From positions 400 through 64,399 of the forward strand of contig CAWDCQ010000019.1 in assembly GCA_963800775.1 (NCBI GenBank): DNA of 64,000 bases, read 5' to 3'. A program made the translations under genes and the position numbers. Each line of letters begins with the position of its first letter. The first letter of the stretch is position 1. This document shows, piece by piece, positions 13,565 to 63,493 of the stretch. The DNA comes from an uncultured Methanomassiliicoccales archaeon (GTDB lineage Archaea > Thermoplasmatota > Thermoplasmata > Methanomassiliicoccales > UBA472). The notes under the pieces are model-generated. The model was not told where the DNA came from, did no database searches, and worked only from the letters and a program-made list of their open reading frames with translations.

Positions 13565-14035
13565 ATGGACGAAATAGACCTGAACATCCTGAAGATGTTG
13601 AAGCAAGATTCCCGGGTGAGCCTTGGCACGATCGCACAGAAGTTGGGAATATCCAAGGCGACCGTTTCTCGCCGCATATCAAAGATGGAAGATGACGACC
13701 TGATCTCAGGATACACGCTCATCACCAATTCCACCAAGCTGGGCCTGATGCGGGCCATCATAGGGGTGGAGGTGGCCGGTTCCTCCCTCACGGAGGTCAT
13801 CGAGGAGCTCAAGAAGTTCGAAGAGATACAGAACATATTCAAGGTGTTCGGCGACCACAGTCTGATCTGCGAGGTCTACACCAAGAGCGTCGATTCCCTC
13901 TATGACCTCATCCAGAGCCGCATACTCAAGGTGGCGAGCATCCAGAACGTGGAGGTCGACATCCTGATCGAGAAGATCTCCCTTAACCCCGATGCGGAGT
14001 TGGACATGCTCAGCAAGGTCTCCTCCACCGTCTAG
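13565..14035 (+). CDS. Lrp/AsnC-family transcriptional regulator
   Basis: Intact 156-aa ORF. HTH is DLNILKMLKQDSRVSLGTIAQKLGISKATVSRRISKME, followed by a C-terminal RAM-like domain. Confidence 0.85.
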   Translation: MDEIDLNILKMLKQDSRVSLGTIAQKLGISKATVSRRISKMEDDDLISGYTLITNSTKLGLMRAIIGVEVAGSSLTEVIEELKKFEEIQNIFKVFGDHSLICEVYTKSVDSLYDLIQSRILKVASIQNVEVDILIEKISLNPDAELDMLSKVSSTV

Positions 14036-14093
14036 CGAACTTGCTGGGACGGTCTGCATAACCGTTATAATCGGCGAGAGCATCCACCGTCAC

Positions 14094-15986
14094 ATGAGCC
14101 GCAGGGTGAAGGTGGCCGCGACCGGCCCGGAAGGCAACCGCTCCGAGGATCCTGAAGCGACCCTGGCCCGGATAGAGCCCCTGACCAAGAGGGCGGGCAT
14201 CACCCGCATCGCCGACATTACCGGGCTGGACCGGATCGGCATTCCCGTTTTCTCCACGATCCGCCCCACCGCCGAGAACGGCGCCATCTCCATCTACAAC
14301 GGCAAAGGGCTGACCCAGACCCAGGCCCGCATATCGGCCATCATGGAAGGGATCGAGAGGTACAGCGCGGAGCTGCACGGGGACGTGCTGGTCAGAGAGA
14401 GGATGGACGAGATGCTGGCCAAGGACAACGCGGTCGATCCGCGCGAGCTCATACTCCCGATCTACACCAAGATGAGGCTAAAGGACATGCCCATCGCCTG
14501 GGTGGAAGGAAAGGAAATAGGAGAAGGCAAACCGGTCATGGTCCCGGCCAGCGCCGTGTTCCATCCCTACACCTCTATGGCGGACCTGCAGCTGTTCCGC
14601 AGCAACACCAACGGACTGGCGTCCGGGAACACATTGCTCGAGGCCATCCTTCACGGGCTGTGCGAGGTCATCGAGAGGGACGCCTGGTCTCTGGCCGAGG
14701 TGAAGAGAAAGGTGGTCTCGGACGTGTCCGTGGCCCAGGACGATGGGCTGTTGAAGGCGACGATGGAGCGCTTCACCGCAAAAGGCGTCGAGGTCCACCT
14801 GAAGAATCTGACCAGCGATATTGGGATGCCGGTGATCGCGGCCGCGGCCGACGATGTCCAGCTGCAGGACGCCGGATTGCTGACACTGGGCATCGGTGCG
14901 CACCCGTCCCCGAAGGTCGCGGCATTGAAGGCGTTGACCGAGGTGGCCCAGAGCAGGCTGACCCAGATACACGGGGCCCGGGAGGACGCGGTCATGGCCG
15001 AAGGCAACCGGAAGCTGGGATACGAACGGATGAAACGCATGAACCAGCTGTGGTTCGGGAAAGCGGCCACGAGCATGAGCATCGAGGACATGGAGGGCAT
15101 AGACCGGGGCGATGTCGAGACCAACATAGAGGAGGCGGTGTCCCGGATACACAAGACCGGGCTCAGTTCGGTCATCGCCGTCGACCTCACCCGGAAGGAG
15201 CTGGGGATACCGGTGGTCCGGGTCGTCGTCCCCGGCCTGGAAGTGTTCTCCATCGATTCCGACCGGGTCGGCAGGAGGCTCGTGGAGGCCGGAAAGGAGC
15301 GCCCGGGGATGAGGCCGGTCGTCTTTTTGGGCATGAGCCTGAAGCTGTCCGAGGCCAGGGAGATATTGGATGCCGACTACCGGCCGCCCATCAAAAGGGG
15401 CGACCTTCCCCTGCTGGACGAGAAGGTGCGGTACGTCGGCATCATCGACGGCGTCTTCATGAACGACTGCTCGGTGGGGCACCGGGAGATAATGGCCCTG
15501 CTCAAGAGAGGGGTGACCGTGGTCGGCGGCGGCAGCATGGGCGCGCTGAGGGCCTTGGAGCTCAACGACATGGGAATGATCGGCGTCGGCAAGATCTTCG
15601 AGCTGTACAATAACGGCGAGATCGAGGGAGATGACGAGGTGGCCCTGATCTTCAACCCGGAGACTAACGATCCCCTCTCGGAGCCGCTGGTCAACATCCG
15701 GGCAACGTTGGCCTTGGCGGTGGAGAGAGGGCTTCTGGAGGCGGACCTATCGTCCTCGATCCTGGAAAAGGTGAGGGCGGAGTTCTACCCGAGACGGTCG
15801 ATGCCCCTGATGGTCGAGCTTGCCCGGGGCGTCATGGACCCGGCGGCCTTTCAGGATTTTGCTGATTTCGTAGAAAAATCATCATTTGACCTCAAAAAAA
15901 GGGATGCTATCGCGGTGCTGCAGGAGATCGCAAAAATCATGAAAAATGAAAATCGGGAAAATTCACGAAAAATGAAAATTCCTTAA
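14094..15986 (+). CDS. ycaO: YcaO domain fused in frame to a TfuA domain (McrA thioglycine-forming system)
   Basis: ATG at 14094 in the frame of ORF 13992..15986. YcaO motifs: GIPVFSTIRP, NGLASGNTLLEAILHGLCEVIERDAW, GIPVVRVVVPGLEV. From ~15309, TfuA motifs: MRPVVFLGMSL, YRPPIKRGDL, IIDGVF, GGGSMGALRALEL, GDDEVAL. Confidence 0.85.
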   Translation: MSRRVKVAATGPEGNRSEDPEATLARIEPLTKRAGITRIADITGLDRIGIPVFSTIRPTAENGAISIYNGKGLTQTQARISAIMEGIERYSAELHGDVLVRERMDEMLAKDNAVDPRELILPIYTKMRLKDMPIAWVEGKEIGEGKPVMVPASAVFHPYTSMADLQLFRSNTNGLASGNTLLEAILHGLCEVIERDAWSLAEVKRKVVSDVSVAQDDGLLKATMERFTAKGVEVHLKNLTSDIGMPVIAAAADDVQLQDAGLLTLGIGAHPSPKVAALKALTEVAQSRLTQIHGAREDAVMAEGNRKLGYERMKRMNQLWFGKAATSMSIEDMEGIDRGDVETNIEEAVSRIHKTGLSSVIAVDLTRKELGIPVVRVVVPGLEVFSIDSDRVGRRLVEAGKERPGMRPVVFLGMSLKLSEAREILDADYRPPIKRGDLPLLDEKVRYVGIIDGVFMNDCSVGHREIMALLKRGVTVVGGGSMGALRALELNDMGMIGVGKIFELYNNGEIEGDDEVALIFNPETNDPLSEPLVNIRATLALAVERGLLEADLSSSILEKVRAEFYPRRSMPLMVELARGVMDPAAFQDFADFVEKSSFDLKKRDAIAVLQEIAKIMKNENRENSRKMKIP

Positions 15987-16091
15987 AATCAGAAACGATT
16001 ATTAACGGCCTTAAATCGAAAAAAATTAACCCCGTTAAAACTTGGACCTGGTACGTCTGGTCGATGTTTTTCTCCTCACTATCGTTTAGGC

Positions 16092-16110
16092 TGGATGGAT
16101 AATCCATCCA
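16092..16110. promoter_or_regulatory. Perfect palindrome TGGATGGAT-A-ATCCATCCA, 114 nt upstream of the mcrB ATG, next to a TATA-like TTAAATCA
   Basis: Read directly from the sequence. Identical 9-nt arms recur at 23713..23735. Confidence 0.55.
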
Positions 16111-16212
16111 ACATCAAGCTTAAATCATGTTGCTGGATACTATACCCTCGCAAGGGGAGCCGATTTTCACTAGATTGATGCAAATCTCTAGTGAATGTTG
16201 AGTTATTAAAAA

Positions 16213-16218
16213 GGAGGT
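16213..16218 (+). promoter_or_regulatory. Shine-Dalgarno-like GGAGGT, 5 nt before the mcrB ATG
   Basis: aaaaGGAGGTaaaacATG read directly from the sequence. Confidence 0.6.
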
Positions 16219-16223
16219 AAAAC

Positions 16224-17557
16224 ATGGCAAAGTACAAGGACAAGGTGGACTTGTATGACGACAGGGGCAAAGTAATCGAGAAAGCAGTGCCCCTCGAGGC
16301 AATAAGTCCTCTATACAACCCAGCCATAAAGCGAACAGTTTCTCTAGCTAAGAGAACGATCGCAGTCGACCTCGCCGCAATTGAGAAAGGTCTCAAGAAC
16401 GGTGCAGTCGGCGGTGGAGTTCTGCGCGGAAGGGAAATGAACCTCGCTATTGTGGCAAACGCAGAGAAGATCGCAAAGAAGACCAAGGAAATCCTGAAGA
16501 CCACCAAGGACGATGACACAGAAGTCAGAACCTTGATGGACGGGAAGAAGATGATCGTCATCGTCCCGGAGGTCAGGTTGGACGCTGGTGTAGAGTACAC
16601 CACCGGATTCACCGCGGCCGCCGCAGCAGTGACGCAGGTCATTCTAGACGAGTTCGACGTTGACATGTTCCAGGCGAGCATGGTCAAGGCCGCCGTCTGG
16701 GGAAGGTACCCGCAGACCATCAACTTCCAGAACTCGAACCTGAAGTCTATCCTGGATGTTCCGCAGCTGAACGAGGGTGCAGGATACGCCCTCAGGAACA
16801 TCATGGCGAACCACATTGTTGCCCTAACCGGCAAGAGCGCCATGAACGCCGCAGCACTGTCCTCGATCTTCGAGCAGGCAGCATCGTTCGAGATGGGCGA
16901 CGCTATCGGCCCGTTCGAAAGGCAACAGCTGCTCGGTCTCGCATACCAGGGATTGAACGCGAACAACATCGTCTACGGCATAACCAAGGACAACGGCAAG
17001 ACCGGCACGGTCGGTACAGTCGTCGAGTCCATCGTCGGCCGTGCGATCGAAGACAAGGTCATAAAGGTCAAGGAGAAGTTGCCGTCTGGATTCAAGACGT
17101 ACACCACCAACGATTTCCCGTTGTGGAACGCGTACGCCGCCGCCGGACTGCTCGCAGCAATAATGGTCAACGTTGGAGCTGCCAGGGCATCCCAAGGTAT
17201 TCCGTCAACCATCCTATACTACAACGACCTGCTTGAGCATGAGACCAGCCTGCCCGGTGTGGACTATGGCCGATCGATGGGTACGTCCGTCGGTATGTCA
17301 TTCTTCTCGCACTCGATCTATGGTGGCGGCGGCCCGGGTCTGTTCCATGGTAACCACGTAGTTACCAGGCACTCGAAGGGATTCGTCAACCCGGTCATCG
17401 CAGCAGGATGCTGTACTTAGATGCTGGAACCCAGATGTTCTCTCCGGAACACACCTCATCACTGGTGAAGGATGTATTCGGCGACATACCTGAGTTCAAG
17501 ACACCGTTGAAAGTGGTCGGCAAGGAGGCCAAGAAGATCAAGGACCTGGTGGCCTGA
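16224..17557 (+). CDS. mcrB: Methyl-coenzyme M reductase beta subunit; frameshift at ~17410
   Basis: [50 protein letters not shown]. After the premature TAG (17418) the protein continues in the next frame as [45 protein letters not shown] to the TGA at 17555. Confidence 0.95.
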
Positions 17558-17559
17558 AA

Positions 17560-17977
17560 ATGAGTTCTGCTTCCGCTTCGGAACAGATGCCATTACCGGA
17601 GATACTGATTTTCCCGGCCCGGCTCCTGAGAGCTGAGACCACCGAGAAGATCCTCAACCGGATCATGCGATCTCGAACGTCAGGCACATCACCGTGAGCG
17701 GAGAAGTCTTCCAGCAGTCTTGAACGCGGGTCCGGGCAAGGGAAAGCCGGTCAACCATCCCGAACAACAGAAGATTACTGTCAAAGGTGATGTGGTTGAG
17801 CTGAGGCTGCTCGTCGGCCGGATATTTGTCGAGATCAACGATATCGACAACGTGCCCAAGGCTATGGAGGACATCGAAGAGGTGTGCAAGGAATTGCTGC
17901 CTTTTGGATTCAATCTCGAAGTGGGGCGGTACTCGAAATTCAGACCAACAGTCACCGACTACAAGAAGAACAGGTGA
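17560..17977 (+). CDS. mcrD: MCR operon protein D; two frameshifts (~17662, ~17703)
   Basis: [35 protein letters not shown] | [14 protein letters not shown] | [53 protein letters not shown]. Position between mcrB and mcrG supports the call. Confidence 0.8.
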
Positions 17978-17982
17978 TTCAC

Positions 17983-18758
17983 ATGGCAAAGTACGAAAGA
18001 CAATTCTATCCAGGTATGTCTGTGCCGGCGAAGAACAGGCGCAGGTTCATCGACCCCAGCAAGAAGCTCGAGAAGCTTCGAGAGGTCGCAATGGACGATG
18101 TCGTGAAGATCATGGGCCACAGGGCGCCAGGAACCGACTACAAGTCGATCCACCCGCCACTGGACGAGGGCACAGAGCCCGACTGCTCAGTAAGACAGGT
18201 CGTCACGCCGATCGAGGGTGCCAAGAAGGGAGACAGGATCAGGTACATTCAGTTCACCGACTCCGTCTACTTCGCTCCGGCGATCCCGTACATAAGGGCC
18301 CAGATGTACATGTCCAGGCTCCGTGGGATCGATACCGGTACCCTGTCCGGCAGACAATCATCGAAATGAGGGAAAGGGACCTCGAAAAGATCGCCAAGGA
18401 GTTCATCGAGAACGAGACCTTCGACCCGGCCAGGACTGGTATCCGTGGAGCAACAGTGCACGGACACGCATGCAGGCTGGACGAGAACGGGCTCATGTTC
18501 GATGCCTGGCAGAGATACCGGTTCAACGCCAAGACCGGCATGGTCGAGTACGTGAAGGACCAGGTCGCAATCCCGTTGGACAAGCCGATCGTCATCGGTA
18601 AGCCGATGGACGAGAAGTGGCTCAAGGCTCACACCACAATGTTCCGCGCGGACGATGTGGACATGAGGGCGGACCCAGAGGTCATGGCCCAGAACCTGAG
18701 GATCCACACACTGAGGACCCTATGCGGCTACAAGCCGTTCGACGTCAAGGGGGAGTAA
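17983..18758 (+). CDS. mcrG: Methyl-coenzyme M reductase gamma subunit; frameshift at ~18356
   Basis: [55 protein letters not shown] | [40 protein letters not shown] lies 6 nt upstream of the ATG. Confidence 0.95.
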
Positions 18759-18761
18759 ACA

Positions 18762-20426
18762 ATGGCAAAGGAAAAAGAAAAACTGTTCATGGCCGCCATG
18801 AAGAAGAAGTTCAAAGAGGACCCAACTGACGTCCACACGAACTACTACTCCTTCGGCGGCTGGAAGCAGTCCAAGAGGAAGAGGGAATGGGTCGAGCAGG
18901 CGAACAAGATCGCCAAAGAGCGCGGCATCCCGATGATGAACCCAGACATCGGTGTCCCGCTCGGACAGCGTGTCTTGATGCCCTACCAGCTCTCTCACAC
19001 CGACATATACGCTGAGGCCGATGACCTGCACTTCGTCAACAACTCTGCTATGCAGCAGGCGTGGGACGATATCAGGAGGACCGTAATATCCGGTCTGGAC
19101 ACCGCCCACAACGTCATCGAGAAGAGACTGCAGAAGGAAGTCACCCCGGAGACCATCAACCACTACCTGGAGACCGTCAACCACGCTATGCCTGGCGGCG
19201 CAGTCGTTCAGGAGCACATGGCTGAGTGTTCCCCGGCTCTGACCGCGGACTGCTACGTCAAGGTCTTCTCCGGCGACGACGAGCTCATGGACGAGATCGA
19301 CAAGCCGTACAGGATCGACATCAACAAGGAATTCCCGGCAGACCAGGCCAAACAGCTGAAGGACGCCGTCGGAAAGTCCCTGTGGCAGGTCATCCGTTGC
19401 CCGACCATCGTTGGAAGGGTATGCGACGGCGGTACGATGTCCAGATGGTCTGCGATGCAGATCTCTATGTCCTTCATCAGCAGCTACAAGCTGGCTGCCG
19501 GTGAGGCTGCGATCGCGGACTTCGCCTACGCAGCGAAGCACGCCTCGGTCATAGAAATGGGTACCATGATGCCAGCAAGGAGGGCCCGTGGCCCGAACGA
19601 ACCCGGCGGAATTCCGTTCGGATTCCTGGCTGATATGGTCCAGTCCCAGAGGAAATACCCGGACGACCCCTGCAGGCAGGCCCTCGAAGTAGTCGCACTC
19701 GGTGCGGTCATCTTCGATCAGATCTACCTCGGAGCGTACATGTCCGGCGGTGTCGGTTTCACCCAATACGCAACCGCAGCCTACACCGACAACATCCTCG
19801 AGGACTACGTCTACTGGGCAGCTGACCTGGTCAAGACCAAGTACGGCGGGCTCACCAAGAGCAAGCCGACGATGGACCTGGTCAACAAGCTCGGGTCCGA
19901 GATCAACTCCTACGCACTGGAGCAGTACGAGAAGTACCCGGCAGCAATGGAAACCCACTTCGGTGGATCGCAGAGAGCGACCGTTGCAGCCGCAGCAACT
20001 GGTATCGGTGTCGCAATGGCTACCGCCAACGCGAACGCCGGTGTCAACGCATGGTACCTATCCATGCTCCAGCACAGGGAGAGGCTCGGAAGACTCGGAT
20101 TCTACGGTTACGACCTGCAGGATATGTGCGGCGCGTCCAACTCGCTGTCGTACAGGTCCGACGAGGGTCTCCCGCACGAACTCCGTGGCCCGAACTACCC
20201 CAACTACGCCATGAACGTCGGTCACCTGCCAGGCTACGCCGGTATCGCTTCCGCCCCGCACGCTGCGAGGGGAGACGCTTTCGCCTGTAGCCCGCTGATC
20301 AAGATCGCGTTCGCTGACAAGAACCTCCCGTTCGACTTCGCCAACATAACGAAGGAGCTCGGCCGCGGCGCACTGCGCGAGTTCATGCCAGCCGGCGAGA
20401 GGACGACCATCATACCCCCGATGTGA
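18762..20426 (+). CDS. mcrA: Methyl-coenzyme M reductase alpha subunit (intact, 554 aa)
   Basis: [60 protein letters not shown]. Confidence 0.97.
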
Positions 20427-22744: not shown

Positions 22745-23710
22745 TCAGAACCTGTCCTTTCGGGTCTTGTTGAGCATCTCGAAGACCGCGCCCTTGCCCA
22801 CATCGAGCGTTCCGATGACCGCTATCGCCTCTTTCTTGCGCATGATCGGGACGACCACCACGGGCAACCCGCGGAACGGACCGGTGGTTGCCGTCTTCCT
22901 GATGATGGTGTTCCGCTTGAGCGATTCCTCCAGCAAAGGACCGGTGAAGTTCGTGTCCACCACCTCTCCCTCGTCGCACCTTACGCCATAATGGTTCTTG
23001 CTCCGCATGGTGACCGGGAGCCGTCCCAGCAGTTCATGTATCGCCAGGGTGAGGCACTTGAGCTCGTCCGCCTCGGTGTCCTGTGAAAGCAGGTTGGTGC
23101 CCTCGTTCCAGCACCGCCGGGATTGGTTTCCCAGGGCAAGCGCCGAGGTCACCGCGCCTTTCTCTGCCGCCTCGTAGGAGAAAGCAGAGCCGATGATGAC
23201 GACGTCGCCGTCCTCTATCTTGAACTTGCTGCGCAGCGGGGAAACGGTCTCCTGGTCGGGGAAATCCTCGTCCCCCGGGAACACGATCTTGCCATCCTTG
23301 ACGATCAGCGTGGTCGCGCCGACCGCTCCGCCCGGACCGCCTCATCACGCTGCTCGCAACCCATCTTGATCCGGTGGGCCATGCCCTTCACCAGCACGGC
23401 GCAGTTATGCTTGCCGAGGGTAAGGTCGGACATGTCCACCGACGCCACTTCCACCCCGGACGTGTCCAGCTTCTTTCTTCCCCGGTCGGTGATGACCGTC
23501 CCCATTCTGGTGTTCTCCACTGACCCTTCCCGCACCATCTTGTCCAGTATGGTGCGGATGCTGCCCTTCCCCTATCTGGAGCGCATCCGCCAAGGCCTTT
23601 CGCCCTATCGGACCTTGGCTGTCAATGACCTGATAGGCCTTCCAGATGTGGAAAAGACTGAATTTGGGTGTAGGTCCACCGGCAAAATAGGAGTTGAACG
23701 CCAATGACAT
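22745..23710 (-). CDS. Archaeal wHTH protein with DUF4443-like N-terminal and DUF2111-like C-terminal halves (family names from memory); frameshifted (~23545, ~23310)
   Basis: MSLAFNSYFAGGPTPKFSLFHIWKAYQVIDSQGPIGRKALADALQIGEG | SIRTILDKMVREGSVENTRMGTVITDRGRKKL..RDEAVRA | GGAVGATTLIVKDGKIVFPGDEDF..LTLAIHELLGRLPVTMRSKNHYGVRCDEGEVVDTNFTGPLLEE..GLPVVVVPIMRKKEAIAVIGTLDV. Confidence 0.6.
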
Positions 23711-23712
23711 TG

Positions 23713-23735
23713 TGGATGGATATATAATCCATCCA
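23713..23735. promoter_or_regulatory. Inverted repeat TGGATGGAT-ATATA-ATCCATCCA, 3 nt upstream of the wHTH gene ATG and 228 nt upstream of atwA
   Basis: Read directly from the sequence. The arms are identical to the palindrome at 16092..16110. The spacer contains TATATAA. Confidence 0.55.
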
Positions 23736-23962
23736 TTTAAACCTTTTTTTGGTCGATTTTCCACCCTTAGGAACGTGTCGACCACTGGCCTGAGAAAGCG
23801 AACATTCTGGTTTTTAAAGAACCATCCCGCAAAGTTAAAAGAGGAAGGGCCTAGATACTAATCCATGGACCCAACATCAGGTTGCCGATAGTTAACAAAG
23901 TTAACGATAATTGACCATCTGGGAGTAAGTATATTAAGACTGTTTAATCATCCGGGAGTGAT

Positions 23963-25599
23963 ATGTCCGAGAATAGTGAGATTTTTGTCGTTGTGGACAA
24001 TATCAGCAAGATCTTCAGCGGCACCCAGGTGCTCAGGGACATCAGCACCACCATCAGCGTAGGCGAGGTCTGGGCCTGATAGGAAGGAGCGGCTCCGGCA
24101 AGTCCGTACTGATCCATGCGCTGAGGGGTAGCGAGGAATACCGGCCCACTTCCGGCAAGATAGTCTACCGCGTCAACCATTGCGAAAAATGCAATCGCGT
24201 GGACCTGCCCGAGCTGGGCAAGAACTGCACCCGGTGTGGCGGGCCGACCCACATCGAAGAGGTCGATTTCTGGGGGCTGGACGAAAGGGACCCGATGCGC
24301 ATGGCGGTCAAGGAGCGCATCGCGATCATGCTCCAGCGCTCCTTCGCACTGTACGGGGACATGTGGGTCATCGAGAACATCTTCGAGGCCTTCCCCTCTT
24401 TCATCGACGAGAAGGCCAAGATACAGCGGGCCATAGAACTGCTTCAAATGGTCAACATGACCCACCGCACCACTCACATGGCCCGGGACCTTTCCGGGGG
24501 CGAGAAACAGAGGTGCGTCCTGGCCCGTCAGCTTGCCCGCGAGCCGATACTGTTCCTGGCGGACGAGCCGACCGGGACCTTGGACCCGCAAACCGCGGAG
24601 ATCGTACACAAGGCCTTGATCGAGGCGGTCAAATGCCAGGGCATGACCATGGTGGTGACCTCGCACTGGCCCAAGGCCATTGCCAGGCTGTCCGACAAGG
24701 CGATCTGGCTGGAGTCTGGTGAAATGGTGAAGAGGGGCAGCCCGGAGGAAGTGGTCAAGGAGTTCGAGGTCGGGTTCGAGAAGACCACCGAGATGCTGGT
24801 ACCGGTGGGTCAGCCGATCATCAGGTGCACCGACTGCCAAGAAGTATTTTTACTCCATCGTTCGCGGCGTGGTAAAGGCGGTCGACGGGGTCTCGTTCGA
24901 TGTCAAGGAGAAGGAGATATTCGGACTGGTGGGCCTGAGCGGCGCCGGAAAGACCACCATGTCCAACATGATCTCTGGTCTCACTCCCGCCACCGGAGGC
25001 AAGGTGGAGGTCCGGATCGGCGATGACTGGATTAACATGGCGGAGCTGGGGGAGTTCGGCCGGGGCCGGGCGACGTCCTACATCGGCATGCTGCACCAGG
25101 AGTATAGCCTGTACCCGTTCAACACCATCCTGCAGAACCTGACCGTATGCATCGGCATGAAGATGCCCGCCGAACTGGCCAAGATGAAGGCCATCCAGGT
25201 CCTGAGCGGCGTGGGATTCCTGTCGAAGGACATAGACCGCATCCTCTACGCATTCCCGGAGACCCTTAGCGTCGGGGAGAAGCAGAGGGTGGCGATGGCC
25301 CGGGTGCTTATTGCCGAACCCGAGGTTCGTGATCCTGGACGAGCCGACCGGCACCATGGACCCGATAACCCGGGTCTCGGTGGCCAAGTCCATCCTGAAC
25401 GCACGTAAGGAGCTCAGGGGAGACCTTCATGATAGTCAGCCACGACATGGACTTCGTCACCGACTGCTGCGACCGGGTGGCGCTCATGAAGGGCGGCAAG
25501 GTCATCGCCCTCGGGGACCCGAAGGAAGTGGTCGCCAACCTGACCGAGGCCGACCTGGTCGGGGATCCCGGCCCAGTGACCTGCGGGGTAAACCCGTGA
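23963..25599 (+). CDS. atwA: MCR system component A2 (double ABC-ATPase); four frameshifts (~24070, ~24840, ~25318, ~25412)
   Basis: Two ABC cassettes: [10 protein letters not shown] (after frame repair)..[27 protein letters not shown], and [38 protein letters not shown] Cys-rich insert CEKCNRV..CTRCGG sits in cassette 1. Ends ..[12 protein letters not shown] with TGA at 25597. Confidence 0.85.
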
Positions 25600-55257: not shown

Positions 55258-56475
55258 GTTCTTATCGGGAAAACCGTCATTTTCCGCAATAAAGGCGATA
55301 ATTCCATGGTCTACAGCGGAACCTTCTAAACTCCCGAAGCATTATTCCCCCGCCCGAGGTCGGTCCGGGATCGATACCAGGCACCATGGAACGAGGGTCA
55401 AATATACACATGTTCAAAAAGCGCATCTTCCGCTGATTCCGCGAAAATGGCGAAGTTACGTCCCCGAAGGGTCGATTGTGCCAGGTGAGGGTAGTAGTCC
55501 CTTTCTGTTTCAGGCAGCATTCAACTTAGCGCCCTACCTGCCAGTCCTGAGCTGTCATCCCGGCTGTTTGGGCTTGCTCCTGTGAGGTGTCGCCGTTTCA
55601 CCAAATCCCCGAGAACGTCACCGTCGAACGGATCATCCTATTGATCGGGGCTGTGTCGTTTCTGCGCCCTTGCCCAGGCTCTCGCCCGGCCGCTTGTGCA
55701 GTCCACATTTCTCTTGGAGTGGGGAACTTCCTCAGCTGGACCGAAGTCCTACCGTCAGCCGCCCTCCCTCTCCTGGCAAGTCTTCCTAAGCAAAGGAGCT
55801 ATTAATAATTCACCTTCTGGGTGGTCCAGATTGCCCGGGACTTCCGATCGAGTCGGACCAAAGCCGTTGAGATGCACAGTTTCAGGTGGTCATGTTCGCC
55901 CGAGGGCGATAAGAGAAGCGTCAATGGGATGGCTTTCTCGTACCGATCAGGTCTGAGCTCGTTCACTTTCCTCGTAATCGAACGCATTCGTCCCTCATCA
56001 GTGAATTCAGGGATGTTCGAGTCGAGAAAGAACCCGAGGCTCACAGACTTGACCGTATCGCTGTTCATCCGACAGGGCGTGAATATTCCAACCCCTGTAG
56101 CCTTTGCCAGATGCCGGCAATTGTCGGAATCAATAATGATAATAGCCTGACGAGGTTTATATGCTCAAAATGCGGGTCCATGCTCAAGGAAGTCCAATCA
56201 AAGGGTAAAACACACCTTACCGGCTTCGTCGATTGTGACTCCCCTCTCCTCCTCCATTATTGTAAGGGCGAAGTCGGTACAACTTTTCTTACAACTCTGT
56301 TAGTTCAAAGATCCCTTCATTCTTGTCCTCATATTTCGTGCCTATATCGGATGATTCGCAACACAAGCCATTCAACTGGATGGTCTAATCGTGATCCCCC
56401 CGATCGCATTGTTCGATCGATTACCGGATCGGTTGCCCTGATGGAATGAAGCGGGGTTTGCCATCCCGGAGGAAT

Positions 56476-56905
56476 TCATTCCCAAGCGTATGCCACGTCG
56501 CTGAACTCCATCGGTCCTCCCTTGGCATCCACGACCGCTATGATCGAGTTCATCCAGGCATACTTCTCCGATCTGGTCATGAATGAGACTACAATGATGC
56601 CCGTTTGCTTGGCTCCCATCTGTTTGCCATGTGATGTGCCGTTCCAGACGATCATCTCTTTGTCCTGGGCCATCATCATTCCGGCCCATTTGCCGAAGGC
56701 CTTACCGTCTGATTTTATCCAGACAGTTCAGAGCCCATATTCGTTCCGCTAGGGAACCGTCCAAAACCTTTCAGGTCCGCACTGAACGATTGCTTCATCT
56801 TTATCCCATCAGCGTCGACCGATTCGACGAACATCGTCGTGTACTTGGCCTTTTCTCGAACAGTTTCTCTCCCATTGGCATAGGATACCTCAATTATGAG
56901 TCCTA
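56476..56905 (-). CDS. Hypothetical protein, frameshifted; weak call
   Basis: ..VSYANGRETVREKAKYTTMFVESVDADGIKMKQSF.. and ..KAFGKWAGMMMAQDKEMIVWNGTSHGKQMGAKQTGIIVVSFMTRSEKYAWMNSIIAVVDAKGGPMEF in adjacent minus frames. Confidence 0.3.
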
Positions 56906-57465
56906 ACGACCGATATTACTATCTTTTACGCTGCAAGACCGGATTATTTGCTATTCGCAACATCTTATCACTATTATTTTTCGCCATGCCGTATCGATCC
57001 ATCCACTATGGTCCTCAAATCCATTGATCCAAATTGACACTTTTATTGACGAAACCAGCATTCCCTGATGCAACCAAGATAGGCAAACGAAGGCTGACGG
57101 TGTTGGATCGAAGATCTTCTATTGCCGCTGAATATTCAATCGATTGTGCGGATAGGCATCAGATTCCAATCAAATCGACCGATACTAAAGTTTGGAAATC
57201 CTGTCTGTTCCCGCCGACCCGATCGAGATTATTGGTCCTTGCGAGTTGTTTTGTCAAGCACGGAAATGCGATTGCGAACATTGGCACAAATTCATTAAGA
57301 ACGGCAAGGACATTGCCTTTGCCCAATGGATAACGACCTCCATAAGGACAGGCTCAATGGAACGACCAACAAAGGTCCAGATTGTAGAGCCACGGTCCCG
57401 GAGGTTTCGTCGAGCGATGATATGAAACCGTATAAGAGTTCGAGACATGTCCAGAAGATCTAGGG

Positions 57466-59404
57466 GTGCAGAACAAAGAGCTCAAGAGACTGCGATCTGA
57501 GTTGGAAGCGACCAAGGCCAAATATTTCGATCTCTATGAACTTGCTCCGGTCGGCTACATAACGCTTGATGACGAATTGAGCATCAAAGAATCGAACCTG
57601 GCCGCTTCGTTATTGTTGGGGGTAGAAGGAAGAGACCCTTCATAGACACCGGTTTTTCGAGGTTTGTCCTGCCAAAATCCCACGAATCGTTCATACTGCA
57701 TTATCGCGGAGTGCAGCAAAATCGGGAAAAACAAGTGGGCACGTTCTCAGTTCAAGGCAAGGATGGAAACGAAATTCGTGTCCGAGTTGAAAGCACCCTC
57801 ATTGAAAACGGTCCTGAAAAGGGGTACAGATCCGTACTGGTCGATGTTACCAGCATATGATCGAGGTAGAGGCACTCAAACGGGCCAACGACGACATAGA
57901 ATGGAATGCAAAAGAAAAACATCAGGGGACTGATTAATAGCGAGGAGAGGTATCGCAGGTTATTCAATGGCATTCAATCTCCGATATCAATATACAAATT
58001 CATCTACAACAACGAAGGGGACATAGTTCATTGGATCCTTGAAGACACCAACCTGGCAGGACTGAATATTCTGGGGAAGAAATCATTGGAAGATGTTCTG
58101 GGTAAAGATGAAACGGAACTCTTCGAGTCCCAATAATCGGAGTGATCGGCTTCCTTTGTTGAAACAGCTTAAAGCCAATGGCCAACAGATTGTTAAAGAA
58201 TTATATTTTGATTGGTCAAAAAGATATTTCCTTTCGTCGCTGGTCTTGTTGGATGCAGACCACTTCATTACATCAGTAACCGATATCACAGAGATTAAGC
58301 GAGCCCAGTCGGAAATAGAAGAAAGCGAAGCCCGCTACCGTAGCCTTTTCGAGAACAATCAGGCTCCCATGCTGATCATCGATCCATCGACTGGCGAGAT
58401 CCTCGATGCCAACCAGATCGCCTCTGGATACTATGGATATTCGCATGAAATGTTAACAAAGATGCAAAATACAGGAGATCAACACGCTCGATCCAGATGG
58501 GGTAAAGGCGGAGATGGCCCAATCACTTGATGGATCGAAGAGGAAATTCGATTTCCGTCACCGTTTGGCCAACGGGGAAGTACGTGATGTGGAGGTACAT
58601 TCGGGGGTAATTCATATTCAAGGCAGGCCCCTGCTTTACTCGATAATTCATGACGTTTCCGAACGAAAGATGATCGAAAAGGAGATCATAGAGAGAACCG
58701 AAGATCTGGCCAGATCCAACGCAGAGCTGCAACAGTTTGCCTATATCTCCTCGCACGATCTCCAAGAACCGCTCCGAATGGTGGTCAGCTACTTGACGTT
58801 GCTCGATAAGAGGTTCGACCACCAACTCGATCCGCAGGCTAGGGAATACATCAATAATGCCGTCGAGGGCGGGTCAATAATGCGGCAGCTCATCGATGAC
58901 CTGCTGGAGTACTCGCGATTGGACGTCGCGGGCAAAGAGTTCGTTCCCGTTAAAATGAACGAGGTCCTAGAATACACGATTAGAGTGCTGAAGATCCCAA
59001 TTGAAGAAAACAATGCACAAATCGTAGTTGGACCTCTTCCGGTGGTCAATGCAGATGAGATGCAAATGATCCTGTTGATGCAAAACCTTGTGGGAAACGC
59101 GATCAAATTCCATGGATCGGAGAGGCCGGTGGTTCAAATTACCGCTGAGCCAGGACCAAGGGACTGGGTATTCACGGTGAAGGACAACGGCATCGGGCTG
59201 AACACAGAATATTCCGACAAGATATTCCAGATGTTCCAACGATTGCATACCAAGGATCGATATCCAGGCACTGGAATCGGTTTGGCGATTGCGAAAAAGA
59301 TCGTGGAACGACATGGTGGACGGATATGGGTCGAATCGGAAGAAGGGAAGGGAGCGACATTCCACTTCACTATTCCCAAAGAGGAAGGGAAAGTGAAAGA
59401 ATGA
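57466..59404 (+). CDS. Multi-PAS sensor histidine kinase (3 PAS + HisKA + HATPase_c); at least 5 frameshifts; true start may be as far up as 57325
   Basis: KAKYFDLYELAPVGYITLD.., SEERYRRLFNGIQSPISIY.., SEARYRSLFENNQAPMLIIDPSTGEILDAN.., then the intact ORF 58514..59404 with FAYISSHDLQEPLR, NLVGNAIKF, DNGIGL, GTGIGLA. Confidence 0.8.
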
Positions 59405-59787
59405 ACAGGGCCAATTTTCCTTGATTATAGCCAATCATGGCACTAATATCCAGTCCATGTTATTCTCCAATTGATGCAACCAAAAAGTAGTGTTTGTAAA
59501 TGTGCTCCAGTCAAAGGCGCAGCTCAGAAATCTACTTCTCTTGCATGTCCCGGTTCTTCCATGGTTGCGCCGACGACCCTGGTGGTTTGGCGATTATTAC
59601 GATGTGATCCACTTTGTGGGGCGAACATCACAACCGAATTTAATATTCCGACGTGAGCATTTTTATCTTCTGAGCCTGGAACATAACCAAAGGCGACATT
59701 CGTCTTTCTGAAAATCAATTATGATAATCAGACATTTCGCTTTAAATGTCTTAAAATCCGTTATTATCATATTCGTCAGGTAATGAA

Positions 59788-60216
59788 ATGCCAAGAGTAC
59801 TTTGTGTTGATGATGATCCGGCTTTGTTGAGGTTGACATCAATCTATTTCAGGGAGGATGACCAGATCAAGATTGTCGGGGTTACATCTCCCAAAAAAGC
59901 TTCGGAACTCCTCCAGACGGACGATTTCGATGTGATAGTCTCAGACTATCAGATGCCCGGCATGGATGGTATTTCGTTTCTGAAGGAATTGAGGAGTTCT
60001 GGAAATTCCATCCCGTTCATCCTCTTATCCTGGCGAGTGGATGAAAAACTTGCTATCGAAGCTATCAACCGAGGGGCGGATATCTGTCTTCAAAAGAGTA
60101 TGGACTTTGAAGATCAGTTCTTGGGCCTTAGAAAGGCAATGATTCTGCTAAGCAAGAAAAGGGGATTCGAGAACGGGATGTTAAAGTCTGAACCGGTCTC
60201 AGTACAGTGCAGATGA
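59788..60216 (+). CDS. Single-domain response regulator (REC)
   Basis: RVLCVDDDPALL..DVIVSDYQMPGMDG..PFILLS..CLQKS. Intact 142 aa. Confidence 0.8.
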   Translation: MPRVLCVDDDPALLRLTSIYFREDDQIKIVGVTSPKKASELLQTDDFDVIVSDYQMPGMDGISFLKELRSSGNSIPFILLSWRVDEKLAIEAINRGADICLQKSMDFEDQFLGLRKAMILLSKKRGFENGMLKSEPVSVQCR

Positions 60217-60379
60217 GCTGAACGACTCCCAGCCATTATCCAAGAATCGCTTTGAGCCGCTTCGGAAGATAGCCCCTCCAATAAGCCAGGTTCCGGGGAT
60301 GGTCTCACTTGTTGGGTGACGTTTTGTCAGTAACCAGACTATGAATTTCTCCCGATTTATTCCCGTTTCCTTTATACCC

Positions 60380-62040
60380 TGAGATTGACAGTTGAAACAC
60401 CGAATTTCAACTGGTTTTAGAATTTGACAGGAGATTTTGAGGTGTCTCGACCTCGTCGAAATCGCCCGTTTTCGGGCGATTTTGTTAGGTCGGATCGAGG
60501 TATTCTGCCAAAATGGCTTTGTTGATTGCGTTGAAGTTCGAGTAGAACTTCTTCTTCAATCCGTTTCCTGCCGAAACCAGCGTAAGTGTCAATTTTTTCA
60601 GAGCGGCAATGATGAATTTCGTTGACATGCGTTTTACTGGCTCAACGAAATGTCGTGTCAAACTGATCATGACCTGAGCGATGAAACCGATCAAAAGGAC
60701 GCCGTGCACGGCGTCCTCCGACCATACTCGGACCGGTTTGATCTCGATCTCGCTCTTCAACGAATGGAAGAGCTTTTCTATCGCATCCTTGGCCCGGTAG
60801 ATCCTCAGCGCCTCGGAAGATGGCATATCCCGGTTGGAGGTGAGGCAGAAGCAACCTTCGCGTCCGTCGATGACCTCTCCGAGGAGGAGGCGGAGCGCCT
60901 CCGCTTCCGGCAGGTCAGTGAGCCTGGTCTGGTAGTCATACTTGACGTCGACCAGTGGATTGTTGATCCGGAAACGTTTCGGCAATTTCTTTCCCTTGTC
61001 CAGGCTGTCCTGGATCAATCGCGCCTCGGCCAGCAGGCGTTCCGCCTGCCTGAGGCGCGATCTCATCTGCTCTTTCTTCAGCTTCTGGGAGAAAAAGTAG
61101 TAGTTGATACGGCTGGGGAAAACCTTCTTCAAAGCACAGATGCCAGCCTCGGCATCCGTGCACTCCCAATCCTTCTTCGAGAATCTTTCGAAGTACTGGT
61201 CATCACTTTTATTCAATTTCTTGGCGGTCAGATAGTCATTTCCGTCCAGCTCGATCCGCTCCAAATTCTCCCTGTCGTTCGCTCCCCGGTCGAACACGAT
61301 CAGGGAACCCGGAACGAGCAGTCGCCGGACCTGGCCATATGTGGACTTCATGTGAACTTGGTCGTTGATATTACCGGCCTCGACGGTAAGACCGATTGGA
61401 ACGCCGTAGGGCGGCGCCAGCATGGCCGCCCCGAGCGTCAGCTGACGCTCGTCCGGCTGGTGGTCTCGCGAATATCCGAACTCGGCCAGGTCGGACCGGT
61501 CGCCATACATGGCGATCGATGTCCAGTCCAGCAGGATATCGGTCGGTGGATGGCCTAATAGCTCCAGGACGCGGTCCTGGAGCTTATGGATGATCCTTTC
61601 CCGGTTGTGGCCCAGAGTTTCCACCGCCCTATAGAGCGTCTTTTCATCAAATGACTTCAATTCGTACTGTTCCAGCATCTCCGGCTGGTTCAGCCACTGG
61701 CTTGCCTGCAGCACACTGAAGTTATCACCCAGCTTGTATGCCAGCAAACCACGCGTGAGGGCATCCAGCGGGATGCCCTTGGTCTTGAGCGGTCCGATGA
61801 ACTCGCTCAAGCCCAGTCGTTCGTAGAGATTGTCCACCATCAGACTCGGTCCGATGGGAAAAGATTTATTTCCGTTAGGCGTAAGCTGAGCTGTCCTCAG
61901 TCTGGACTGTCTTTGCACAATTACAGCAGGGCTGAGGGCACTTCATATCTTTTTCGAATCGGTCTGTTATTAGGATGATCCAGTCATCGATGTTCGACGA
62001 AAAACATCAAAAATTGACCAGGTCAAGTGTCAAGGTCAGG
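60380..62040 (-). mobile_element. IS1634-family (IS4 superfamily) insertion sequence; ends approximate
   Basis: Contains the intact transposase. Imperfect terminal inverted repeat candidates are ATTGACAGTTGA (60384-) and TCAAGTGTCAAG (-62033). Boundaries are not verified. Confidence 0.55.
60485..61918 (-). CDS. IS1634-family DDE transposase (intact, 477 aa)
   Basis: DILLDWTSIAMYG (D), LIVFDRGANDRENL (D), YRAKDAIEKLFHSLKSEIEIKPVRVWSEDAVHG (E/K region). The length and layout are typical of IS1634. Confidence 0.8.
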   Translation of the reverse strand: MQRQSRLRTAQLTPNGNKSFPIGPSLMVDNLYERLGLSEFIGPLKTKGIPLDALTRGLLAYKLGDNFSVLQASQWLNQPEMLEQYELKSFDEKTLYRAVETLGHNRERIIHKLQDRVLELLGHPPTDILLDWTSIAMYGDRSDLAEFGYSRDHQPDERQLTLGAAMLAPPYGVPIGLTVEAGNINDQVHMKSTYGQVRRLLVPGSLIVFDRGANDRENLERIELDGNDYLTAKKLNKSDDQYFERFSKKDWECTDAEAGICALKKVFPSRINYYFFSQKLKKEQMRSRLRQAERLLAEARLIQDSLDKGKKLPKRFRINNPLVDVKYDYQTRLTDLPEAEALRLLLGEVIDGREGCFCLTSNRDMPSSEALRIYRAKDAIEKLFHSLKSEIEIKPVRVWSEDAVHGVLLIGFIAQVMISLTRHFVEPVKRMSTKFIIAALKKLTLTLVSAGNGLKKKFYSNFNAINKAILAEYLDPT

Positions 62041-62212
62041 TTATACTGACATTTTCGCAGTCAAGTCCCTGGCACGTCCGAACCAACTTTCTCCGCATAT
62101 CCAGACCTCTCCTTCCATGCGCCGACGACTCTGGCGATCTAGCGACGTTTTCCAGCGTGCTCCACTCCGTTGGGCAAACATTAATAACCGAAGCCAACAT
62201 TCCGAGGTTCAA

Positions 62213-62299
62213 GCGGGGATAGCCAAGCATGGCCAACGGCGCTAGATCGAGGGTCTAGTCCCTAGCGGTCCAAGGGTTCAAATCCCTTTCCCCGCACCA
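62213..62299 (+). tRNA. Class II tRNA, most likely tRNA-Leu (anticodon read as GAG), CCA encoded
   Basis: Acceptor GCGGGGA/TCCCCGC + A + CCA. 3-bp D stem GCC/GGC with a long D loop. Anticodon stem CTAGA/TCTAG with loop TCGAGGG. 13-nt variable arm TCCCTAGCGGTCC. T arm AAGGG-TTCAAAT-CCCTT. A TTTTT tract follows. Confidence 0.8.
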
Positions 62300-62552
62300 T
62301 TTTTTATTGGGCCGGTCCTGTTTTGCTTCCGTGCATCGATCTGAGAACTTCGTGAATAGAGTTTGCAGCTTAACCTTGGTTACTGCACATCTAAGCATGC
62401 CATTCCAGATTTATTTCGGTCGATCATCCATTGGAATTGTGGAAGGGCTCAATATGTGGTCTGGTCCATGGATAGAACTTTTGTTGTGGCCGGCCTGCAT
62501 ATTCAATCAGAGGCACATGACCTTGCTGAGCTCATTGGCCTATCCGAACAGA

Positions 62553-63020
62553 TCACACTCCTGGACCCGTATCAATGAACTCGTAGATGGTCCCCAGGAG
62601 CGGCTCTGAGTCCATGTAGTAAAATGTGTTAGGGCCGATCTTGCCGCTCATGAGCACTTCGATTCCCATTTCCTTGAAAGCCGCCAATATCTTGTCCGGG
62701 TCGTGGACCGTCGACTGGACATGGTGAAGGCCGCCTCCTCTCTCCTCCAGGAACTCCTTCCAGATGCTAGGGCCCTCAAGGGGTTGTATGAGCTCTAATT
62801 GAATACTTCCGTTCTGTGCAACTGCGGCCATCATTGTGGCATCGACCGGTTTCCCGCGCAAGGTAACGCCCGTCAGAATCGGAGGTTCCATTTTGACGGT
62901 ATACCAAGGGCCAATTCCCAACAGTGTCCAATTGTCCACCTCCATCTGCAGGTCCCTGACCACCATGCCGATCTGGGATATCTCGCCTATTTTGATGCCA
63001 GGTAAATCCATTTTGCCCAT
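62553..63020 (-). CDS. VOC-family (glyoxalase / methylmalonyl-CoA epimerase-like) protein
   Basis: MGKMDLPGIKIGEISQIGMVVRDLQMEVDNW..IQLELIQPLEGPSIWKEFLEERGGGLHHV..YYMDSEP. Start is taken at the internal Met 63020. Confidence 0.65.
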   Translation of the reverse strand: MGKMDLPGIKIGEISQIGMVVRDLQMEVDNWTLLGIGPWYTVKMEPPILTGVTLRGKPVDATMMAAVAQNGSIQLELIQPLEGPSIWKEFLEERGGGLHHVQSTVHDPDKILAAFKEMGIEVLMSGKIGPNTFYYMDSEPLLGTIYEFIDTGPGV

Positions 63021-63493
63021 CTTTCGACCTCTTAACTCATTTGGTCCTCGCCATATAATAAACCCTTGAAACGTAGGATTTTCCAAGGTCAAGCGTCGTT
63101 GTTGCAAATCAAGCAATTGATCGAACGGAATATCTGGGATATCGGGCGACTTTACCAGGATTCAGGTCCCGTAGGCATAGTCCTACGGAGTGTCCAGAAC
63201 GGGCATGTTCGATATCAATGGACCTTTCCCTTGGTCTGTCCCTATGCGCTCCGAGGAATTGCCCAGAATGCCAGGCCTCCAGATCACCATTCTGCATTAA
63301 TCCGACAATACTGATCTCCGCCGGTCTCGATGTTCGAATAGCCACCATAATAGAAAGAATTCATCGGCGCGCTCGAATAATATAGATGATCCGATGTTTC
63401 GTTACATTTTTTATAGATAAATGACTAAAATTATAATGCTGGCGATAAAACTAAATAAACTCGGCAGGCAAGAACGGTCCGTGGCCGATAATT

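Follow-up and report, generated by a model that had tools for sequence, protein, structure and literature searches.

The window, by which we mean the whole 64,000-nucleotide stretch analyzed here, comes from an uncultured member of the Methanomassiliicoccales, methyl-reducing methanogens of guts, rumen, and wetlands, and carries the structural genes of MCR, the enzyme that catalyzes the methane-forming step. The genes concerned are the following.

13565-14035: Lrp/AsnC gene, recognized by Pfam scan
13992-15986: YcaO-TfuA reading frame, recognized by Pfam scan
16224-20426, plus strand: mcrB-mcrD-mcrG-mcrA operon, lacking mcrC (Pfam MCR_beta, MCR_gamma, and MCR_alpha)
22745-23710, minus strand: regulator gene coding for about 321 amino acids with wHTH, DUF4443, and DUF2111 domains, assembled from open reading frame fragments and Pfam matches
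23964-25400 (end approximate, the gene being frameshifted), plus strand: divergently oriented gene, atwA/component-A2-like, for an ABC ATPase with a pair of ABC domains

This gene order (Lrp, YcaO, TfuA, mcrBDGA, DUF2098, small genes including CMD and DUF6951, and the regulator) is conserved among relatives. In the clade of the window, atwA, mcrC, and a cluster of marker genes point away from the regulator, with mcrC and the marker genes coming after atwA in relatives. No exact match to the McrA protein of the window was on record, and relatives were reached by way of homologues. The McrA protein is 85 to 87% identical to cluster representatives from Methanomassiliicoccales metagenome-assembled genomes (MAGs), and the nearest loci (L006, L007/L030, L022, L023, L028, and L029, from Microflora Danica “MFD” and other uncultured MAGs) have McrB N-termini that are 94 to 96% identical. 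In this assembly, frameshifts interrupt three of the mcr genes (mcrB, mcrD, and mcrG) as well as atwA and the regulator gene, so that the assembly of the window is rich in indel errors; intact orthologous mcr operons are found in the gene tables of relatives.

Two palindromes built from the same pair of 9-nt arms were located by pattern search, exactly at the coordinates given in the preliminary description of this DNA.

16092-16110, no strand: site 1 (O_mcr), perfect 19-bp palindrome TGGATGGAT-A-ATCCATCCA
23713-23735, no strand: site 2 (O_TF), 23-bp palindrome TGGATGGAT-ATATA-ATCCATCCA

The arms are perfect at both sites, as the dyad symmetry of a palindromic operator demands, and the pair is far from random. 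The pattern TGGATGGAT-N(0-12)-ATCCATCCA has two matches in the window, as against none in each of 100 dinucleotide-preserving shuffles, and the core TGGATGG-N5-CCATCCA, with two mismatches or fewer allowed, matches the window at sites 1 and 2 only, where 0.49 matches are expected. Since both sites also recur at orthologous positions across the order, the earlier judgment that such a pair is improbable by chance holds, and we assign a negligible probability to a coincidence or a remnant of a mobile element, a reading that can point to a lone half-site as the only further copy. That copy, ATCCATCCA at 56997-57005, is present as previously described; neither a partner arm nor a gene start was found in its surroundings, and since a given 9-mer should occur exactly about 0.5 times over the 128 kb of both strands, it is best ascribed to chance. 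Lacking both a partner arm and a promoter context, it was rejected as an operator.

Site 1 ends 114 nt upstream of the mcrB start codon (ATG at 16224), the distance originally noted, and is embedded in a series of conserved elements.

16081-16088, plus strand: ATCGTTTA element, consensus aTtGTTTA, a few nucleotides upstream of the palindrome, recognized in the information-content profile
16113-16119, plus strand: TCAAGC-type block (consensus tcA.CAagc) in the interval between palindrome and TATA box, at the presumptive BRE position
16120-16127, plus strand: TATA box of the mcrB promoter, TTAAATCA here and TTATAT in most relatives
16150-16223, plus strand: predicted mcrB 5' untranslated region (UTR), opening with the conserved block GCAAGGGGAGCCGATTTTCA (16150-16169)

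The TATA-like element had been described at 16119-16126; the element is there, with its position shifted by one base. Phylogenetic footprinting of the mcrB upstream regions, which the preliminary description had proposed as a check, was carried out with 44 fetched loci of relatives in which the mcrB start could be located, in addition to the window. Far from being absent upstream of mcrB in all close relatives, the palindrome is retained in 40 of the 44, always with the 1-nt spacer, among organisms whose McrB N-termini are only about 60 to 95% identical. It is absent from L005 and from the gut Methanomethylophilaceae loci L065 and L070, though these keep the regulator. When the 36 distinct upstream sequences are anchored on the palindrome, they yield the consensus aTtGTTTA.ga-TGGATGGat.aTCCATCCA-tcA.CAagc-TTATAT-(~26 nt)-gcAaGGGgA.ccgaTTTtc, in which the gap between palindrome and TATA box is 9 nt in 34 of the 36; the placement of site 1 at the upstream edge of BRE and TATA box is thus borne out. 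The GCAAGGGG block starts about 26 to 30 nt past the TATA box, which is where a transcript would be expected to begin; we therefore infer an mcrB transcription start site (TSS) near 16150, which would put the center of the palindrome at about -49. The UTR so delimited would contain a hairpin (approximately 16158-16204; the 5' UTR fold has -17.3 kcal/mol and z = -2.1) and the Shine-Dalgarno sequence AGGAGGT, and no Rfam family matched in a scan of 15900-16300.

The ATCGTTTA element could be the site of a second factor, an extended contact, or a weak upstream TATA box. The last of these options leads to a different reading of the promoter, in which site 1 is the repressor site of a second, upstream promoter with GTTTA at 16084-16088 as its TATA box, and not an activating site of the TTAAATCA promoter. 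The ATYGTTTA block, 2 to 4 nt upstream of the palindrome, is conserved to the same degree as the palindrome itself, and the arrangement mimics the module of TATA box followed by palindrome that is seen at the regulator gene and at all of the cobalamin genes discussed below. However, GTTTA flanked by variable bases makes a poor TATA box, and the strict 9-nt distance to a strong TTATAT, with a conserved block about 26 to 30 nt later, marks the downstream promoter as the main one. We consider the second promoter quite unlikely and retain TTAAATCA as the TATA box to which site 1 relates.

Site 2 occupies a different place relative to the transcription machinery, as is apparent from one further element.

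23736-23741, minus strand: TATA box of the regulator gene, TTTAAA, abutting the palindrome, in a layout repeated in relatives

Read on the minus strand, the order is GG-TTTAAA-TGGATGGATTATATATCCATCCA-CA-ATG, that is, TATA box, palindrome, 2 nt, and start codon (ATG at 23710). There is no space for a leader or a Shine-Dalgarno sequence, and hence the regulator mRNA is probably leaderless. We lined up the regions before the start codons in 80 loci encoding relatives of the regulator, drawn from species-representative genomes. With a threshold of 14 of the 18 arm bases, 61 of the 71 distinct upstream regions contain the palindrome, directly after the TATA box and ending 1 to 9 nt before the ATG. 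Random 60-nt windows of the same loci reach that palindrome score in 0.5% of cases, true sites included. The 5-nt-spacer form accounts for 41 cases, and the Methanomassiliicoccus clade has the 1-nt form. The identical 23-mer occurs in several independent relatives, so that the 5-nt spacer of site 2 is genuine, and an assembly error, which the frameshifts elsewhere might bring to mind, was rejected because the same 23-mer is found in independent MAGs. The 23-mer can also be seen as a pair of 19-mers that overlap with a 4-bp shift; each has two core mismatches and is composed of one perfect and one weaker half.

Both palindromes are therefore one shared cis-element, conserved at a fixed position in orthologous mcrB and regulator promoters alike, and in this respect the earlier proposal of a shared operator stands. 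Its extension to neighboring MCR activation genes finds no support: site 2 is some 229 nt away from where atwA begins in the window and belongs to the promoter of the regulator itself, and in the locus L001 the gene on the upstream side of the regulator is an ammonium transporter and not atwA. A motif copy in the promoter of the gene for a DNA-binding protein is what autoregulation would require, and the same arrangement is found beside short members of the family in other phyla. With the motif in its own promoter in those 61 of 71 distinct relatives, the adjacent winged-helix protein, already named as a candidate in the preliminary description, becomes by far the best candidate binder.

As perfect inverted repeats, both palindromes could also act as hairpins in RNA or DNA, for instance by terminating tfuA, serving as a processing site, or forming a cruciform, and both indeed fold stably (z = -4.0 and -3.2 versus shuffles). 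Yet no run of T residues follows either palindrome, the Rfam scan of 15900-16300 gave no match, and both sites keep their positions relative to the TATA boxes and start codons of the genes downstream and not to the stop codon upstream. The sites would moreover lie outside the predicted transcripts, one upstream of the presumptive TSS and the other in the interval between TATA box and start. Many orthologous sites also carry a single uncompensated arm change (e.g., TGGtTGGAT..ATCCATCCA), which would break a stem and is tolerable for a protein dimer. A hairpin function is thus very improbable, and the terminator reading was rejected for want of a T-run and because of the link to TATA boxes. Changes that do affect both arms are symmetric between lineages, as in TGGATGaAT-G-ATtCATCCA at the regulator promoter of gut Methanomethylophilaceae and TGGgTGGAT-A-ATCCAgCCA in a Thaumarchaeota MAG, which is how the site of a dimer would be expected to evolve.

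Within the order the motif is closely confined to promoters. About 1.36 Mb, made up of the window and all Methanomassiliicoccales loci, was scanned for sites with a spacer of 1 or 5 nt and 16 or more of the 18 arm bases matched, and L076:11158 apart, every such strong match precedes either mcrB or the regulator gene. At L076:11158 the palindrome is double, and after it come a TATA box and an operon whose genes specify a corrinoid protein that binds B12, a methyltransferase of the URO-D family, and a CobW GTPase. The genes of this operon supply methyl groups to MCR. Neither the window nor the locus of any relative has a copy upstream of its Lrp/AsnC gene, so that the Lrp/AsnC protein encoded at 13565, also put forward as a binder in the preliminary description, lacks the operator expected in its own promoter and is an unlikely reader of the motif.

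The regulator gene of the window has at least two frameshifts and is represented there by three HMM fragments, which on inspection of the alignment are near-identical to the intact orthologue P0176; over the C-terminal 126 amino acids the identity is 98%. P0176 combines a PH0730-like_N/CggR_N winged helix and DUF4443 (Pfam codes PF22167, PF21715, and PF14544) with DUF2111. The succession of the winged helix and DUF4443 places it in the family of PH0730 (PDB code 2P8T), which the family profile matches with E = 9e-21, more strongly than it does the SorC/CggR DNA-binding domains, and a helix with the motif “GEGSxRT” is common to the regulator family and PH0730. An AlphaFold model of the regulator (pLDDT 84) has 2P8T as its best structural match (Foldseek E = 2e-11, TM 0.76 on the target), and the winged helix of the model superposes on the DNA-bound domain of CggR with an rmsd of 0.9 Å. 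Foldseek searches with the whole protein returned PH0730 and wHTH matches only; when DUF2111 was modeled alone (pLDDT 86), it was seen to resemble, at modest scores (best E = 7e-4, TM about 0.55), ligand-binding domains of the Cache, PAS, and GAF types. As modeled, the protein has the architecture of a one-component regulator equipped with one or two modules for sensing small molecules. The search for homologues recovered more than 450, and the 120 listed all have the three-domain architecture or most of it. A stand-alone DUF2111 in Methanosuratincola adjoins a gene for an ECF S-component and not mcr, a context that is uninformative as to a link with MCR. In the literature searched, we found nothing on DUF2111 or DUF4443.

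Beyond the order, the contexts of the motif are of another kind. An exact-pattern scan of metagenome contigs gave at least 123 matches in at least 120 contigs, and 70 of the 123 matches listed have a 1-nt spacer, as against 8 to 16 for each of the spacers of 2 to 5 nt, a strong enrichment of the 1-nt form. Just one of the matches listed lies in an mcrB promoter. Among these listed matches, the contigs range in GC content from 0.37 to 0.62, and the layout is TATA box, palindrome, 0 to 8 nt, and ATG. The genes downstream, again among the matches listed, code for ECF S-component membrane proteins (at least 18), Peripla_BP_2/BtuF-like binding proteins (at least 9), ECF-type ABC ATPases (at least 4), and the class III ribonucleotide reductase NrdD (at least 5), as well as CobN chelatase, a FecCD/BtuC permease, a tetrapyrrole methylase (TP_methylase), and a CobD-like aminotransferase. 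Judged by gene content, this is the gene set of a cobalamin regulon, so that in other archaeal contigs genes for the transport and biosynthesis of cobalamin are preceded by a palindromic box.

At least 10 of the contigs with the motif also encode a short protein of about 206 amino acids consisting of wHTH and DUF4443, the relatives of which bear the names Nitrososphaerales/Thaumarchaeota at NCBI. The identical 19-mer is found in the TATA-to-start interval of these short genes too, in archaeal contigs outside the order. In L208, an assembly named Thaumarchaeota, the symmetrically altered palindrome given above lies between the short regulator and a divergently oriented operon that includes genes for an ECF S-component and a Peripla_BP_2 protein along with two others; in L209, a Nitrososphaerales locus with a short regulator, no palindrome was found within 10 kb. 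A motif reserved for MCR genes, as the two copies in the window had suggested, can accordingly no longer be maintained, given that in other archaea the identical 19-mer precedes genes for the uptake and biosynthesis of cobalamin as well as those for short DUF4443 regulators. The two copies in the window precede mcrB and the regulator gene and not cobalamin genes.

That the motif accompanies the DUF4443 family across phyla is the strongest argument for a DUF4443 protein as its reader, and the best reading of this distribution is that the palindrome is the family operator of DUF4443 regulators, which would be ancestral for the wHTH-DUF4443 combination. On comparative grounds, we consider it probable that both palindromes in the window are operators of one factor, the wHTH-DUF4443-DUF2111 protein encoded at 22745-23710; its binding to both, whether it activates or represses mcrB, the TSSs, and the ligand are likewise deduced from sequence.

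The spacers bear directly on this proposal: the site at the regulator gene usually has 5 nt and that at mcrB always 1 nt, and one rigid dimer cannot read the two forms identically. Two related proteins would explain the difference more easily, and hence it is conceivable that the operators are real and that the mcrB site is bound by a different protein, either the Lrp/AsnC protein (13565-14035), whose gene is syntenic just upstream of ycaO-tfuA-mcrBDGA in all relatives examined, or a short wHTH-DUF4443 paralogue encoded elsewhere in the genome, of the kind that uses the exact 19-mer in other phyla. However, the motif tracks the DUF4443 family across phyla and not Lrp, and it is not found upstream of the Lrp gene in any locus, for which reason Lrp/AsnC was rejected as the main candidate; further, no second member of the family is encoded within the 64-kb window. 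The Methanomassiliicoccus clade and the Methanomethylophilaceae, moreover, have the 1-nt form at the promoter of the regulator itself, from which it follows that one protein can serve the 1-nt geometry. A different binder is therefore unlikely in our estimate. For a single wHTH-DUF4443-DUF2111 regulator reading both sites, one speculative solution is that the overlapping 19-mers within the 23-bp site give an autoregulatory site of lower affinity.

The positions of the two sites suggest how such a factor might act. The interval between TATA box and start is a classical spot where archaeal repressors block the recruitment of polymerase, and a regulator dimer on the 23-bp site would thus be expected to block RNA polymerase recruitment and repress its own gene. 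A dimer on the 19-bp mcrB site would sit directly 5' of the BRE position, where it might either touch TFB/TBP or compete with them. Activation of mcrBDGA through recruitment at site 1 is the more likely outcome and one toward which we lean, by analogy, since a site upstream of BRE and TATA box at a rigid distance fits the position rule of SurR, TrmBL1, and Ptr2-type activators. Repression by occlusion of the BRE is a lesser possibility, which arises because only about 3 nt separate the palindrome from the BRE position.

As to the ligand, the motif at the cobalamin genes and NrdD of other archaea stands in what would be a repressor position, and these targets make a corrinoid plausible as the family ligand, judging from regulon content in other phyla. 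Obligate methyl-reducing methanogens require corrinoid proteins for the formation of methyl-CoM, and a corrinoid ligand would suit their physiology; the DUF2111 sensor fused to the protein in Methanomassiliicoccales may add a signal or replace one. We tentatively suggest, as an idea that may well prove wrong, that wHTH-DUF4443 proteins are an archaeal protein counterpart of the bacterial B12 riboswitch, responding to corrinoids and reading a 19-bp operator that is conserved across phyla, and that the member with DUF2111 was rewired to couple MCR synthesis to corrinoid or methyl-transfer status. If this were true, the DUF2111-fused member would also control an operon for a corrinoid protein and methyltransferase in at least one lineage, and it would be the first dedicated mcr regulator in Methanomassiliicoccales. 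To our knowledge, almost nothing is known of the control of MCR genes, and nothing for this order, and archaea largely lack B12 riboswitches. The proposal assigns a probable function, operator, and regulon to DUF4443, DUF2111, and the orphan structure 2P8T, and suggests a route by which archaea sense corrinoids; were the ligand indeed a corrinoid, methane output would be tied transcriptionally to the cobamide supply of the community.

Several known systems offer parallels. SurR and TrmBL1 of Thermococcales are dual-mode factors in which a winged-helix dimer recognizes a palindrome, repressing from sites downstream of the TATA box and activating from sites upstream of BRE and TATA box. The layout described here follows the same position rule, including the site for the predicted repression of the regulator's own gene, and differs in the protein (a PH0730-like wHTH with DUF4443 and DUF2111), in the motif, and in the putative target mcrBDGA. 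PH0730 of Pyrococcus horikoshii, a structural-genomics protein, has the wHTH and DUF4443 in common with the regulator but lacks DUF2111. With the CggR/SorC-family repressors of Bacillus (PDB codes 7OYK and 8R3G), the likeness is confined to the N-terminal domain, which superposes on DNA-bound CggR at 0.7 to 0.9 Å and is matched by Pfam CggR_N; the C-terminal SorC-type sugar-phosphate-binding domain that defines that family is missing, DUF4443 and DUF2111 take the place of effector domains, and the operator is an inverted repeat at archaeal promoters.

The cobalamin targets outside the order (BtuF/BtuC, ECF transporters, CobN, corrin methylases, and the B12-independent NrdD) recall the bacterial cobalamin riboswitch regulon and the CBL-box; here, in contrast, the element is a predicted protein operator and not RNA, and in the window it serves mcrBDGA and the regulator gene as predicted targets. 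Such an archaeal “CBL-box” for a hypothetical B12 regulator was reportedly predicted by Rodionov et al. (2003, J Biol Chem). The general motif may therefore have been seen before under that name, a likeness drawn from the target genes. As for direct transcriptional control of the mcr operon, the IMPDH-related protein VII of Methanothermobacter is said to bind the mcr promoter and is a candidate for the same role, although it is an unrelated protein from an unrelated group of organisms, and we know of no comparable conserved palindrome or autoregulatory loop for it. In the literature searched, we found no description of the regulator family, the motif, or their link to mcr, and, in agreement with the preliminary description, no described regulator of mcr transcription in this lineage. 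A palindromic operator with an autoregulatory loop is a familiar kind of element; even if the motif itself had been seen earlier, it would still be new which factor this is and that it is employed at the mcr promoter.

Upstream of the mcrB palindrome, a 19-bp predicted operator (16092-16110), lies a further block, ATYGTTTA (16081-16088), which ends 2-4 nt 5' of the palindrome, occupies the same position in 36 relatives, and across these is as well conserved as the palindrome itself. The block is present neither at the palindrome in the regulator's own promoter (23713-23735) nor at the site in L076, a locus from a Methanomassiliicoccaceae MAG. A second factor may bind there; alternatively, the block may serve as an extended contact or act as a weak upstream TATA element. 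Downstream of the palindrome, the inferred mcrB 5' UTR (16150-16223) opens with an order-wide conserved block, GCAAGGGGAnCCGATTTTC, and contains a hairpin with perfect 9-nt arms (TTCACTAGA/TCTAGTGAA); an Rfam search of this region matched no family.

The candidate regulator of these sites is a wHTH protein with DUF4443 and DUF2111 domains. In L076 (11158-13821; one MAG), a doubled palindrome with a TATA box precedes genes for a corrinoid protein that binds B12, a methyltransferase of the URO-D family and a CobW GTPase; the regulator gene of this MAG has no clear palindrome site of its own. The gut Methanomethylophilaceae (L063-L072) retain the regulator, and its own promoter carries the symmetric operator variant TGGATGaAT-G-ATtCATCCA, while no palindrome site was found upstream of mcrB in L065 and L070, the two of these loci that cover it. 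Rewiring of the regulon appears to have taken place in this group. One MAG (SPRUCE 117) encodes a second full-length regulator paralogue, 46% identical (L061 versus L037), in front of which the palindrome is absent. A stand-alone DUF2111 protein of 117 aa is found in Candidatus Methanosuratincola verstraetei (L087, 9995-10976), where its gene adjoins one for an ECF-transporter S component and is not near mcr.

In the window, frameshifts split five genes that are unbroken in relatives, as follows.

Frameshifts in the window (16224-18758, 22745-23710 and 23964-24100)
About 17410: mcrB
Within 16224-18758: mcrD
About 18350: mcrG
Within 22745-23710, minus strand: regulator gene, at least two places
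About 24040: atwA, the ABC ATPase gene divergent from the regulator gene

The assembly, probably a long-read one, thus looks indel-rich, and the gene calls need caution. YcaO and TfuA form a single 664-aa ORF in the window (13992-15986); in all relatives they are encoded separately, either side by side or with an overlap of a few bases. The single ORF may be a further indel artefact rather than a true fusion. Elsewhere in the window, GC falls from about 0.57 to 0.46-0.52 over 56000-64000, with few clear ORFs at 56-58 kb and, at 58093-59404, ORFs whose translations resemble, by eye, a PAS sensor and histidine kinase. This segment may be foreign or degraded.

Beyond the methanogens, the exact 19-mer TGGATGGAT-W-ATCCATCCA was found, among the matches listed, in other contigs (the metagenome contigs L088-L207, of which those of low GC are presumably archaeal; a symmetric variant occurs in L208, a named Thaumarchaeota assembly), where it marks an apparent cobalamin regulon: ECF-S, BtuF-like, BtuC, CobN, corrin methylase, CobD-like aminotransferase and NrdD. 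Among these same matches, the marked genes are accompanied by genes for short regulators, which combine the wHTH and DUF4443 domains.
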